IMG/VR virus record: IMGVR_UViG_2721755712_000004
Coordinates: 1 to 27,369 of that record
Reading direction: 5' to 3' (one strand)
DNA length: 27,369 nt
DNA from: a virus
Lineage: Duplodnaviria > Heunggongvirae > Uroviricota > Caudoviricetes
In this document: positions 18,601 through 21,600 of the stretch, piece by piece
Numbering within the stretch: position 1 is the stretch's first letter
Layout: each line of letters begins with the position of its first letter
Program-made: the position numbers

Positions 18601-21600
18601 AATCGCCATTTTGTTCCCGCTTTCTTTCCCTCTCTCGCTGCGCCCTCTTGCGCTCTGCCGGAGATTTTGCGGTTTGCGAAATATTGCCGTTGTCCTCTTT
18701 CAGCACCTGGCGTTTTTCCCATCCAGTGATTAAATCACCATCAAGTACCCGCCCCTGCATCGTCTGCAAAATTGAATCAATTACCTCTTCTGTCACGTCG
18801 AGCGCACTTGCCAAATCTTCTGTCGTGACATCAATGTGACCTCGCGTGACATTTCGTGACGCGCTCACCAGGAGGTGGATATACACTGCCATCACTGTTG
18901 CAATTGGCTGCCCTGACACCCTGGCAATTGTTCGCCACTTAGGGTCATTTGGCATGTCATGCCATAATCTGAGCCAGGCGTTAGCCATACTCACCTCTTT
19001 TGATACCGAATCTTTTTACTCACAAATTGCCGGAAGTGATCCGGTATGAATATTGCGAGTCAATGCACAGCCACAATATTTCCTGCAGGGCCACCACGAT
19101 TCATCTGGTTGAAACCAGCGATCGCCACTGCGACAAAATCATCAGCGTCTCTCACCAGTCGTTCCCGCGTCTCCACTAGTTCCCGAAAATACGCTGAGCT
19201 ATGACTGCGCATTCGGGCCACCAGCAGAGGTGGCATTGCTTTTTCGATAGCTGGTAACAACGCCTGAATTTTTTTAACCGCATCAGGGGTGTCTTTCTCC
19301 ACCCAGCGGAAAATTTTCTGAGTATTGCGAGCCAGGGCTTCCGGATGGCTGTCGTCATACAGTTCCGGGAACGTCATTCCCAGCTCGAAATACGCTTTGG
19401 TAATTTTCGCAGCCGGTACTTTTTCGCCGTCCGGATGCGCCCAGGCATTCATCGCCATGCGGATGTGTTCATGCTTGATTTTCATGAATCAACTCCCATC
19501 AGCTTTTTCGTAGTAGTTTTATTCCTGCCAATAGTTAAAATTGCATCGGCAGAAAATAATCCGTTTGATGCAAGAGCGATTTTTTCAGCGTAATTTGTTT
19601 CGCCGGTATATTCTGTGCGAGGCAATTTTCCGTTATCCATCCATTTATAGATTGCTCTTTGGCTGACACCACAAACGTCGGCCACAACAGCAACGCGAAC
19701 AGTTTTGATTACATCTTCAAGTGTTTTCTGGTTCATATCACCCTCACAATGTGAACTTTGAGTACATGCCATAACAGAACTGACAGTACATTCAAGAGCG
19801 AATATCATTGAACTTATGGTTCATGAAGATAAAGCGCGTAAAGAGTTCGCCAGTAGGCTTGCGCTAGCCTGTGAAAACGCTGGTTATGAACAACATGGAA
19901 GGCAGGCAGAAATTGCCCGTCGAATGAAATTAACACCAAAAGCGGTTAGCAAATGGTTTAATGGCGAAACAATTCCTCGCCGGGAGAAATTAAGGGAATT
20001 AGCAACACTAATAGGAACAACACCAACCTATCTTTTGGGAGAGGATACAGAAGAAAGTGGACAGGTACGTTTCTATCAGGAGTTAAATCCAAGACAAAAA
20101 ATCATCATTGACCTTCTGGACGAGCTCCCTGACAGTGAGACAGATGAACTTTTAAAAACTCTTGAAGAGAAAAAACAGAAGTACAATGCAATTTACGAAG
20201 AGTTAGCACGAAAGAAAAAACAAAAAGCCTCTTAAACCAGCATAAATCCGGTAGCGCCTTCCTCCGGGTTTGTGCTTCACTTTATCCCATCTCATTTTTT
20301 TACACACAAAATGTACTAAAAGTACTTTACAACAATGAACGCAAAGTACATTATATGCCTACCACCCACCCCGCCCCACAGAATGCAGGGCAATACTTCG
20401 AGTTACCAAGCAGTGGTCAGGGGTTAAGTAGCCAGCCCGAGGCGTAAGAACATGACGGCAGGGTTCAACTTTAATAACTATGCAGCAGGTTTTTGTTCCG
20501 CTACCCCGGCGTTAAGGGGAAATGAGGTCAGCATGGATACTATCGATCTTGGCAACAGCGAATCTCTGGTATGTGGCGTGTTCCCCAACCAGGACGGTAC
20601 GTTCACCGCGATGACGTATACCAAAAGCAAAACGTTTAAAACCGAAAATGGTGCCCGTCGCTGGCTGGAAAGAAACTCAGGTGAGTGATATGGATTTCGA
20701 CACAATCATGGAAAAGGCTTACGAAGAATACTTCGAAGGCCTTGCCGAAGGCGAAGAAGCTCTCAGCTTCAGCGAATTTAAACGGGCGCTTTCCAGCTCG
20801 GCAAAATCTAACGGCTGATAAGCGAAACAGCACCGCGAGGAATCAGTATGCAGAAACGAGAACCCGTCATCATCGCGCCAGACTATACCGATGATGAGCT
20901 TTATGAGTGGATGCGCCAGAAAATTAAGGCCGCGCAGGACCTGAAATGGGCCAATGAAGCCAAGGCTAAGCAGGCTGAAAATCTGTCCGCTCTGGAGCAG
21001 GATATCACCAATTTGGAAAAAGCAGCGGCATTAAGCATTGCCAGAATGATTACATACCCACGTTAATAGCTAACCAACGAGGCTAATAATGGAATTTAAA
21101 GATTTACCAATGCAATTCCAGGAAATGGCAGCGAATATAGTTCGTTCCCAACTGGCGACTCTTGACCTGAGTACCGTAGAAAAAGAAACCATCGATACTA
21201 TATCCGGTAACGTGCGTCGTGCCTTTATCGGTCTGTACGAAGAGAAGCAGCTCTCTGATAACCAGGATTTACATGAAAAATACCTCCTGGAATTAATGGA
21301 TATCATTGATAAGGGGTTTGGCGGTAATGACTCCAACTTATTGATAGTGTTTTATGTTCAGATAATGCCCGATGACTTTGTCATGCAGCTACACCGATTT
21401 TGAGAACGACAGCGACTTCCGTCCCAGCCGTGCCAGGTGCTGCCTCAGATTCAGGTTATGCCGCTCAATTCGCTGCGTATATCGCTTGCTGATTGCGTGC
21501 AGCTTTCCCTTCAGGCGGGATTCATACAGCGGCCAGCCATCCGTCATCCATATCACCACGTCAAAGGGTGACAGCAGGCTCATAAGACGCCCCAGCGTCG

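Follow-up and report, generated by a model that had tools for sequence, protein, structure and literature searches.

A probable lambda-like immunity switch with HK022-type operators in a defective lambdoid prophage

The stretch of viral DNA analysed here (27,369 bp, referred to throughout as the window) very probably carries the lambda-like immunity switch of a defective lambdoid prophage, with HK022-type operators, a repressor and a Cro-like protein. A preliminary description had drawn attention to repeated AGTACAT motifs around the repressor gene; these motifs are half-sites from a set of five 17-bp sites, arranged like those of phages HK022 and 933W, which argues for an ordinary immunity switch of the lambda kind. 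As in lambdoid immunity regions, the repressor gene and cro diverge, further operators of the same kind lie at the leftward promoter (PL), and the module is exchanged as a unit. The 79-bp gap between the divergent cro-like and repressor genes (19737-19815) contains three 17-bp sites that overlap the predicted promoters PR and PRM, and two further sites at 20311-20351 overlap the predicted PL, 180 bp upstream of ydfA. The relevant genes and transcripts are as follows.

19060-19485, ydaT gene (CII analogue), following the cro-like gene in the PR operon
19482-19736, minus strand, Cro-like gene (84 aa), first gene of the rightward (PR) operon
19816-20235, plus strand, repressor gene (139 aa): helix-turn-helix domain at about residues 1-75, disordered linker at 77-87, DicA-like two-helix tail at 92-138
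20357-20532, plus strand, PL leader, common to prophages with unrelated immunity modules and outside the immunity module
20533-21066, plus strand, ydfA, ydfB and ydfC, first genes of the PL operon (DUF1391 match for ydfA; RefSeq annotation)
21338-22035, IS1 coding sequence, between ydfC and dicF (annotation)
22785-22836, plus strand, dicF sRNA (Rfam DicF, 68.6 bits)
23011-23199, plus strand, dicB, in the distal part of the PL operon (annotation)

Five operator sites in two regulatory gaps

A count on both strands of the window reproduced all four AGTACAT positions of the preliminary description (19761-67 and 19785-91, plus strand; 20311-17, minus strand; 20345-51, plus strand) and found no copy outside 19761-20351, so that the motif is not a word spread evenly over the window. 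Each AGTACAT forms the right-hand arm of an imperfect palindrome of 17 bp, ATGWAC(T)-N3-AGTWCAT, in which the left arms (GAAC/GTAC) had escaped notice. The 13-bp core GWAC-N5-GTWC has five exact matches in the window, at 19753, 19777, 19810, 20313 and 20337, compared with a mean of 1.0 in a first-order Markov simulation (P = 0.005 for at least five), and all five lie inside the two regulatory gaps.

19751-19767, OR1, GTGAACTTTGAGTACAT, exact core, 22.3 bits; covers the predicted PR start region
19775-19791, OR2, CAGAACTGACAGTACAT, exact core, 15.5 bits
19808-19824, OR3, TTGAACTTATGGTTCAT, exact core; spans the repressor ATG (19816-18)
20311-20327, OL2, ATGTACTAAAAGTACTT, exact core, 22.0 bits; overlaps the first bases of the predicted PL -35 element
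20335-20351, OL1, ATGAACGCAAAGTACAT, exact core, no mismatch to the 17-mer; between the predicted PL -35 and -10 elements

The centre-to-centre spacings are 24 bp (OR1-OR2), 33 bp (OR2-OR3) and 24 bp (OL2-OL1). In a scan of the window with a matrix trained partly on the window sites themselves, the five sites score between 15.5 and 22.3 bits and the next best sequence elsewhere 11.0 bits. A search of the window that allowed at most one core mismatch revealed no third OL site and, downstream of cro, no counterpart of the additional HK022 operator; candidates with two mismatches are unconvincing.

The two motifs previously reported in the divergent region are both genuine, but the number of sites there is three, the additional one (OR3, right arm GGTTCAT) having been overlooked. 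Downstream of the repressor gene, the motifs described as an inverted pair around a palindrome are likewise real, although they are better parsed as two neighbouring operators (20311-27 and 20335-51) 24 bp apart. The perfect 10-bp palindrome AAAGTACTTT exists at 20319-20328 rather than at 20318-20327, an offset of one base, and is merely the right arm of the 20311-27 operator, because GTAC is self-complementary.

Comparison with HK022 and 933W

Nucleotide homology to HK022 extends over positions 19641-19976 and 20295-20359 of the window, and the two share the 24/33/24 spacing, the placement of OR3 over the repressor (cI) ATG and the positions of the promoters. In alignments, OR1 corresponds to the OR1 sites of HK022 and of two further phages, Kp4864-1 and Omnitron, as well as to the annotated 933W OR1; the position of OR2 and its GAACTGA-AGT string are kept in all relatives; and OR3 occupies the location of the annotated 933W OR3, which also lies over the cI ATG, and of the HK022 site TTGAACTTATGGTTCAA. 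OL2 and OL1 align with HK022 ATGTACTATTGGTACTT and ATGAACTTTAAGTACAT, respectively, a pair of the same operator type. The HK022 operators were identified by motif scan and by agreement with the geometry summarised in the literature (PMC8053113); besides the OR and OL sites, the scan returned an extra site 267 bp downstream of OR, in agreement with the 'operator 300 bp downstream of OR' described for this phage (PMC8053113). On the window-type matrix the HK022 sites score 11.6-25.3 bits, which lends sequence-based support to a possible homoimmunity, in which the repressor would block superinfection by HK022. This extra HK022 operator downstream of cro, and the OL3 that the literature assigns to HK022, were both not found in the window, and HK022 PL drives putL and nun, whereas the window PL is followed by an unrelated leader and ydfABC-dicF-dicB.

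The GenBank-annotated operators of 933W (OR1-3 and OL1-2, GQ499361), which have also been measured, are 15-16-bp sites, four of the five with an exact GWAC-N5-GTWC core and OR2 departing from it by one base. Like the window, 933W has five operators only (three OR and two OL), with OR3 spanning the cI ATG, and its PL -10 element, CATTAT, is identical. The five natural 933W sites are conserved at positions 2-5, with contacts from S41, K42, K46 and E51 of the repressor (PMC3317979); all five window sites have the G-W-A-C at positions 2-5 of each half that defines the HK022/933W type. The first base of the half-sites is mostly C in 933W (CGTAC) but T in the window (TGWAC), and residue 41 is S in the 933W protein and P in the window protein; on the window-type matrix the 933W sites reach just 8.5-12.5 bits. 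A further difference is that in 933W some 3 kb separate OL from cI, and nutL and N come after OL.

Predicted promoters and the leftward operon

Three promoters are predicted at the operators.

19768-19795, minus strand, predicted PR (cro-ydaT operon): -35 TTGAAT (19795-19790), 16-nt spacer, TGT-extended -10 TATGGC (19773-19768)
19780-19808, plus strand, predicted PRM (repressor): CTGACA-17-TATCAT, 10/12 matches in a promoter scan
20326-20354, plus strand, predicted PL (dicBp equivalent): TTTACA-17-CATTAT, promoter scan

PR, the spacer of which contains the OR2 core, was read from the sequence and from alignment with HK022 (TTGACT-16-CATAAT in the same columns) rather than mapped. Its -10 element lacks the final T, as a consequence of which it was not called by the consensus scan, and this poor element suggests that PR may be weak here. 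Transcription from PRM would begin at about the A of the ATG at 19816 and would yield a leaderless mRNA; there is no Shine-Dalgarno sequence before this ATG, and a leaderless repressor is known from CP-933P, a sister prophage (PMC8630535). The HK022 stretch homologous to PRM carries the label 'PM -10' (supplement of PMC8053113), and the PRM assignment may nevertheless be imperfect. Since OR2 overlaps the predicted PRM -35 element (centre at about -33), positive autoregulation in the style of lambda cannot be assumed. The PL -35 element TTTACA is invariant in eight relatives with HK022-type operators, and the counterparts of PL in the same columns are TTTACA-17-CATCAT in HK022 and TTGATA-17-CATTAT in 933W; the corresponding promoter of CP-933P, PL933P, is experimentally active and repressible (PMC8630535).

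The PL leader is present in 3764 of 5426 complete E. coli genomes. It has no match in Rfam (20357-20532, even at E <= 10) and no excess folding stability over shuffled sequences (z = +1.4), and its interpretation as an antitermination RNA similar to HK022 putL was rejected, as its sequence does not resemble that of the HK022 leader. From 20495 onward the window is 96% identical to the K-12 Qin prophage. The assignment of the downstream sites to the ydfABC-dicF-dicB promoter agrees with the synteny and with the overlap of operators and PL, yet IS1 splits ydfC from dicF, so that control of dicF-dicB from PL may be broken in this strain. The prophage is defective, with truncated tail and portal genes in addition to IS1 in the PL operon, and parts of the circuit may consequently no longer matter in this strain.

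The repressor and the Cro-like protein

The repressor matches the Pfam HTH_3 profile, and its N-terminal domain is 47% identical to that of HK022 CI and 51% identical to that of 933W CI. The recognition helix, PKAVSKWFNGE, differs from that of HK022 CI (PKAISKWFNGE) by a single V/I change, and K42, K46 and E51 are kept. The only match in a sequence search of the PDB was the N-terminal domain of P22 C2 (E = 0.006). Beyond the linker the relationship changes: the tail aligns with DicA and not with CI, and carries the LPxSExD...EEL pattern conserved in the short (ca. 135-140 aa) DicA family, the identity to K-12 DicA being 29% over 112 aa including the tail (BLASTP E = 5e-15). An AF2 model of the protein (mean pLDDT 82.6) contains just two helices past the linker. 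HK022 CI, 235 aa long, ends in a cleavable domain of the LexA kind, and the corresponding part of the window protein is a helical, DicA-like tail of 50 residues; 933W CI carries an S24 domain, whereas the window repressor, which stops at residue 139, has no Pfam match to the S24 peptidase (PF00717). Cooperativity of the HK022 repressor is located in the C-terminal domain that the window protein lacks.

Judged by these alignments, the repressor is chimeric, with a DNA-binding domain resembling those of the HK022 and 933W CI proteins joined to a helical tail like that of DicA. Its earlier designation as DicA-like thus holds for the C-terminal 50 residues and not for the domain that would recognise DNA. 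Phage Tritos encodes an identical protein, annotated as a CI repressor; no publication describing the chimeric repressor was found in the literature searched on HK022/DicA and phage Tritos.

The Cro-like protein is 60% identical to HK022 Cro, has a weak HTH_17 match and is annotated as an HTH regulator in NZ_CP029981. Its gene lies inside the swappable immunity module, since the left break in homology with other modules is at 19496.

Exchange of the module between related prophages

The modules of Qin, Rac, CP-933P-like and TUM1586 prophages occupy the same flanks, each with its own motif at both promoters. BLAST breakpoints between the window and the Rac, CP-933P-like and TUM1586 modules are at 19496 on the left and at 20357-20360 on the right, 3-6 bp past the PL -10 element. 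Between these shared flanks the operators change with the repressor, as became apparent from the search of related prophages proposed in the preliminary description. The TUM1586 repressor has its tail in common with the window protein but not its DNA-binding domain, and its operators are different.

In CP-933P of E. coli O157:H7, which has the same backbone, with ydaT on the left and an identical leader and ydfA directly after PL, the operators of the PaaR2/YdaS/YdaT system at OR and PL933P were proven by EMSA, footprinting and reporters, PaaR2 and YdaS acting on both (PMC8630535). The CP-933P repressor and operators (ACAATAAAAAACTGT-type repeats) are unrelated to those of the window, and a toxin-antitoxin pair follows the CP-933P repressor.

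In the Qin system (PMC10448788; PMC3441716), DicA represses dicBp and dicCp (PMC10448788). DicA and the window repressor are both short proteins without a cleavage domain and with a homologous C-terminal tail, and both prophages have a divergent cro-like gene and a second operator set at the ydfABC-dicF-dicB promoter. In contrast, DicC is unrelated to the window Cro, the leader in Qin is shorter by some 100 nt, and Qin has the Rem antirepressor, for which a tblastn search of the window with K-12 Rem gave no match (best E = 0.19). The Qin sites at dicCp and dicBp are TTAGY-N4-RCTAA-like (for example TTAGTCATAACTAA and TTAGCATTAGCTAA); none resembles the window sites, and their best score on the window-type matrix is 0.4 bits versus 15.5-22.3 bits. 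The operators therefore do differ from those of K-12 dicA, as had been proposed. An immunity specificity distinct from that of Qin would follow, although not a new one, the operators being of the HK022/933W type.

Conservation and distribution

In a footprint of nine lineages, among which the repressor gene has a synonymous divergence (dS) of 0.7-1.1, 38 of 40 operator core columns are invariant and the spacers and flanks drift. At OL all 16 core columns are invariant, including every core column of OL2, compared with 1 of 10 spacer columns and 10 of 61 others; at OR the figure is 22 of 24 core columns. That the same 17-bp site type, with its conserved core, occurs at both regions supports the earlier suggestion of one repressor controlling both. 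The repressor gene itself is under strong purifying selection (dN/dS 0.04-0.06).

The 24/33/24-bp spacings are kept in E. coli, Shigella, Salmonella and a Citrobacter phage, and an intervening higBA pair between repressor and OL does not alter this; in a Klebsiella phage the OR spacings of 24 and 33 bp are kept and no OL site was found in the stretch examined. Sites and promoter positions of the HK022 type are shared by phages of Klebsiella and Citrobacter and by prophages of Salmonella. A contig scan with strict repressor peptide patterns returned one Shigella locus, the distant relatives having been reached by protein search and contig look-ups. About 19% of the complete E. coli genomes carry the module, O157:H7 among them, in which it resides on a Rac-like prophage; the exact 60-bp OR segment of the window is present in 36 of 1027 module-carrying genomes. 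Near-identical operators are also present in the complete deposited genome of phage Tritos.

Alternative interpretations

The sites could be relics of an HK022-like ancestor that the short repressor stopped using after the C-terminal exchange and the decay of the prophage. The truncated genes and IS1, the degenerate PR -10 element, the rarity of the exact OR segment among module genomes and the loss of the HK022 cooperativity tail would all fit such a history, which is nonetheless improbable: the low dN/dS of the repressor is accompanied by dS of up to 1.1 between short-form lineages, the operator cores are intact in all of those lineages, including Salmonella, where decay would have made them drift as the spacers and flanks do, and the identical repressor and near-identical operators recur in the complete phage Tritos. 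Only slightly less credible is that the sites serve mainly another protein, whether the Cro-like protein alone, YdaT or a host factor, and not the 139-aa repressor. Cro proteins of lambdoid phages use the same operators as the repressor, the window Cro closely resembles that of HK022, and the footprints of YdaS and PaaR2 overlap in CP-933P (PMC8630535). However, the repressor has a recognition helix nearly identical to that of HK022 CI and retains K42, K46 and E51, proven operator contacts in 933W, while ydaT lies outside the swappable module and the operators change with repressor and cro; sharing of the sites by Cro belongs to the main explanation and is no rival to it.

The inverted repeat at 20322-20349 might alternatively function in minus-strand RNA, as a hairpin or an intrinsic terminator, instead of binding protein as DNA, as a terminator scan flags a 10-pair stem with a T-run at 20349-20322. 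This is very unlikely, as the stem consists of arms from two neighbouring operators and contains just three G-C pairs, a single such match is within chance (shuffle mean 1.4), no minus-strand gene ends upstream, and relatives keep the operator cores and not the pairing, the spacer changes between lineages being non-compensatory. As to the repeats being a chance A+T-rich word in A+T-rich intergenic DNA, the number of 7-mers is indeed unremarkable (2.33 expected; at least four in 19 of 100 shuffles), but their clustering is striking (P ~4e-5 for four random positions within 584 bp). With five of five cores in two gaps at fixed 24/33/24 spacing and invariant across nine lineages, chance is already refuted by the comparative data and retains hardly any probability.

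Proposed operation of the switch

For the lambda-like immunity switch favoured here, the 139-aa repressor probably binds as a dimer to the five 17-bp pseudo-palindromes by way of a helix-turn-helix of the HK022/933W-CI type; dimerisation might involve the tail, and binding to neighbouring sites may be cooperative. Occupation of OR1 and OR2, which cover the start region and spacer of predicted PR, would shut off cro, ydaT and the replication genes. As OR3 lies over the repressor start codon and the presumed PRM start point, negative autoregulation would follow at high repressor level. OL2 and OL1 overlap the predicted PL -35 element and fill the spacer, and their occupation would repress the leftward operon ydfABC-(IS1)-dicF-dicB-ydfD-exo-xis-int. 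The HK022-Cro-like protein is expected to act on the same sites in the opposite order. With a DicA-type helical tail replacing the LexA-like S24 peptidase, the repressor should escape SOS cleavage, and its inactivation, if any, may proceed through an antirepressor or through instability, as described for DicA.

Implications

The map of five sites and three predicted promoters applies to a module that is present in about one fifth of complete E. coli genomes and is at present annotated with just 'helix-turn-helix domain-containing protein'. The textbook view of lambdoid immunity is unchanged by these results. They indicate that repressors in this prophage family are built from interchangeable parts, in which DNA-binding domain and operators travel together and a DicA-type tail is common to repressors with unrelated specificities. 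A more speculative, and rather doubtful, extension is that an SOS-insensitive short repressor might bind the operators of other resident or incoming phages with operators of this family and so confer an uninducible immunity to HK022-like phages. PR and PL of 933W-type Stx2 prophages might also be damped, in which case a cryptic prophage would modulate the induction of Shiga-toxin phages.

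Predicted operators and promoters of the immunity module

The locus is very probably a lambdoid immunity switch, with the predicted elements listed here.

Predicted operators and promoters, with the flanking genes
19482-19736, minus strand: Cro-like gene
19751-19767: OR1, GTGAACTTTGAGTACAT
19775-19791: OR2, CAGAACTGACAGTACAT
19808-19824: OR3, TTGAACTTATGGTTCAT, overlying the repressor start codon (19816)
19795-19768, minus strand: predicted PR, TTGAAT-16-(TGT)TATGGC, from alignment with HK022
19780-19808, plus strand: predicted PRM, CTGACA-17-TATCAT, from a consensus scan
19816-20235, plus strand: repressor gene
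20311-20327: OL2, ATGTACTAAAAGTACTT
20335-20351: OL1, ATGAACGCAAAGTACAT
20326-20354, plus strand: predicted PL, TTTACA-17-CATTAT, from a consensus scan

The preliminary description had placed AGTACAT half-sites in the cro/repressor gap and at the dicB-operon promoter, and their coordinates are exact (19761, 19785 and 20345 on the plus strand, 20311 on the minus strand; a total of four in the 27,369-bp window). The count itself is unremarkable (shuffle mean 2.33, with at least four in 19 of 100 shuffles); it is the clustering that is remarkable, all four copies lying inside 584 bp (P ~ 4e-5 for four random positions). In register, the four copies are the right arms of imperfect 17-bp palindromes, ATGWAC(T)-N3-AGTWCAT. 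Exact matches to the symmetric core, GWAC-N5-GTWC, number five in the window compared with about 1.0 expected (P(>=5) = 0.005), and all five lie inside the two regulatory gaps. The half-sites are real. OR3 and the left arms had been overlooked, and the supposed inverted pair around a palindrome is instead two adjacent operators, OL2 and OL1. The 10-bp palindrome AAAGTACTTT does exist, one base to the right of its reported position, at 20319-20328. Centre-to-centre, the operators are spaced by 24 and 33 bp on the right side and by 24 bp on the left.

The consensus scan called two plus-strand promoters. The putative PRM ends 8 nt upstream of the repressor ATG, without a Shine-Dalgarno sequence, and would yield a leaderless repressor mRNA; in the putative PL, the -35 edge is overlapped by OL2 and the spacer is filled by OL1. 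PR was missed by the scan because its -10 element is weak, and is proposed from alignment with HK022 TTGACT-16-CATAAT, with OR2 lying in the spacer and OR1 covering the region of the start. This -10 element (19768-19773, minus strand, including 19770) differs among lineages, being TATGGC in the window, TATAGC in phage Tritos and Shigella, TATATT in O91:H21 and CATAAT in HK022 and Salmonella, and could be a promoter-down allele in this cryptic prophage. The exact 60-bp OR1-OR2 segment of the window is found in only 36 of 1027 module-bearing E. coli genomes.

Relationship to HK022 and 933W

Judged by sequence, the predicted operators are of the HK022/933W type. The 933W-type GenBank entry GQ499361 carries annotated OR1 (CGTACTTTCAGTACG), OR2 (TGAACTGAAAGTTTT) and OR3 (CGTACTCATGGTTCA), the last over the cI ATG, and two annotated OL sites followed by TTGATA-17-CATTAT; 933W has five natural 15-bp symmetric sites in which positions 2-5 are conserved (PMC3317979). 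HK022 has OR sites GTGAACTTATGGTTCAT, CGGAACTGATAGTACAG and TTGAACTTATGGTTCAA, OL sites ATGTACTATTGGTACTT and ATGAACTTTAAGTACAT, and one additional site 267 bp past OR, in agreement with the CI operator described 300 bp downstream of OR (PMC8053113). BLAST against HK022 returned nucleotide homology over 19641-19976 (cro 5' end, OR and cI N-terminal domain) and over a second block at 20295-20359 (OL/PL), with none for the intervening repressor tail.

Three OR sites at 24/33 spacing also occur in Klebsiella phage Kp4864-1 and Citrobacter phage Omnitron, which encode full-length CI proteins, and in Salmonella prophages with a short-form repressor (62-65% identity). OL sites 24 bp apart are present in Omnitron and the Salmonella prophages, and none was found within the stretch of Kp4864-1 examined. 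The Salmonella layout is kept despite a higBA pair inserted between repressor and OL. This HigB/HigA-like toxin-antitoxin pair, seen in two Salmonella enterica loci (L014, 2553-3220; L015, 2588-3255) with the short repressor gene on one side and OL/PL on the other, takes the position of paaA2-parE2 in CP-933P and of rexAB in lambda. Accessory cargo appears to have landed repeatedly in the slot that follows the repressor.

A chimeric repressor

The repressor is a chimera of an HK022/933W-type DNA-binding domain and a DicA-type tail. Its only Pfam matches are HTH_3 and HTH_31, with no S24 peptidase domain detected in that search. Identity to 933W CI is 51% over residues 1-73 and identity to HK022 CI is 47% over residues 4-102, and the recognition helix, PKAVSKWFNGE, differs from PKAISKWFNGE of HK022 by one conservative change. 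Lys 42, Lys 46 and Glu 51, shown or modelled as operator contacts in 933W (PMC3317979), are retained, while Ser 41 is replaced by Pro, as in HK022. The C-terminal 50 residues correspond to the tail of K-12 DicA (alignment of 112 aa, E = 5e-15). In an AlphaFold2 model (mean pLDDT 82.6), an HTH domain of five helices is joined through a disordered linker (residues 77-87) to a helix-turn-long-helix tail. HK022 Cro and the Cro-like protein share 60% identity.

The 139-aa repressor of E. coli TUM1586 (L011, 1198-1617) has a tail with 39 of about 50 residues identical to that of the window, joined to an unrelated N-terminal domain and accompanied by its own operators; this suggests that the DicA-type tail is a mobile cassette common to repressors of several specificities. 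No description of an HK022-type DNA-binding domain fused to a DicA-type tail, or of its frequency, was found in the literature.

Module exchange and conservation

The module, scored as present where at least 80% of 19737-20500 was covered, occurs in 1046 of 5426 complete E. coli genomes, and other prophages have the same flanking sequences around a different module. Homology to Rac (K-12), a CP-933P-like prophage and TUM1586 ends at 19496, just beyond the ydaT start, and restarts at 20357-20360, 3-6 bp past the PL -10 element; Qin homology restarts later, at 20495. At OR and PL alike, every alternative module has a repeat of its own.

Repeats at OR and PL in alternative modules
Rac: TTAGGC-N3-GCCTAA
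CP-933P-like: ACAATAAAAAACTGT
TUM1586: ATACCCAYRGGTAT
Qin: TTAGY-N4-RCTAA

The cleanest natural experiment is provided by TUM1586, in which the tail is the same and both the DNA-binding domain and the operators differ. On a matrix built from short-form sites, the window sites score 15.5-22.3 bits (next-best window 17-mer, 11.0), HK022 sites 11.6-25.3, 933W sites 8.5-12.5 and Qin at most 0.4. Across nine lineages, invariant columns at OL make up 16/16 of the core, 1/10 of the spacer and 10/61 of other positions, and at OR 22/24, 9/15 and 11/43, respectively, both variable OR core columns being A/T switches. The repressor gene has a dN/dS of 0.04-0.06 at a dS of 0.7-1.1, so that neutral sites have largely turned over. 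In the close relatives Shigella and phage Tritos, operator substitutions are confined to the N5 spacer.

Prophage setting

By its annotation in E. coli 99-3165 (NZ_CP029981), where the stretch is identical, this is a lambdoid prophage, and it is defective, several structural genes being truncated. Rightward from PR, the Cro-like gene is followed by a YdaT-family gene and then replication genes; YdaT was reportedly described by Prolic-Kalinsek et al. in 2023 as the CII analogue in CP-933P. Leftward from PL the order is ydfA, ydfB, ydfC, IS1, dicF (Rfam match, 68.6 bits), dicB, ydfD, exo, xis and int. The IS1 (CDS 21338-22035) lies after ydfC (20848-21066) and upstream of dicF (22785-22836) and dicB, creates a 104-aa hybrid ORF (21089-21403), and probably exerts a polar effect on the expression of dicF-dicB from PL; the corresponding site in phage Tritos carries no insertion. 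Upstream of the lysis genes, at 9463-9772 (minus strand), are four clustered tRNA genes (Gly, Thr, Lys, Ile); close to truncated tail-fibre genes, Rfam matches an IS009 RNA (41-244, minus strand).

The untranslated PL leader (20357-20532) is common to Rac, CP-933P-like and TUM1586 prophages with unrelated immunity modules and is present in 3764 of 5426 complete E. coli genomes. Within it, a block of 25 nt, AAGTAGCCAGCCCGAGGCGTAAGAA (20426-20450), is nearly invariant even in otherwise non-aligning Salmonella leaders. The leader has no Rfam match and no excess folding stability, nor does it resemble HK022 putL, and it was rejected as a put element.

The proposed switch

We infer repressor binding, transcription start points, tail-mediated dimerisation and cooperativity. 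Repressor at OR1/OR2 would block PR and at OL1/OL2 would block PL, OR3 over the PRM start would provide autoregulation, and Cro would share the sites of the repressor. Direct precedents are DicA, which represses dicBp and dicCp (PMC10448788), and PaaR2 and YdaS, which in a prophage of the same backbone bind OR and repress PL933P (PMC8630535); paaR2 is leaderless (PMC8630535). With no S24 domain, this repressor is expected to be insensitive to SOS, as DicA is; a search of the window for a Rem homologue found none.

The suggestion that operators and specificity are distinct from those of K-12 DicA is borne out by the Qin repeat and its matrix scores. Given the HK022/933W operator type, the specificity is therefore distinct from DicA yet not new, and the architecture is textbook. 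In E. coli O157:H7 ECP17-1298 (L020, 3246-3999), a 96.5% identical module heads a Rac-like leftward operon (ydaF, sieB, kilR, recE) and not ydfABC-dicB; one repressor type would therefore control different cargo across strains. That such an uninducible repressor would cross-repress HK022-like or 933W-type phages we consider improbable. The HK022 site scores make it plausible for HK022-like phages; the 933W scores are borderline.
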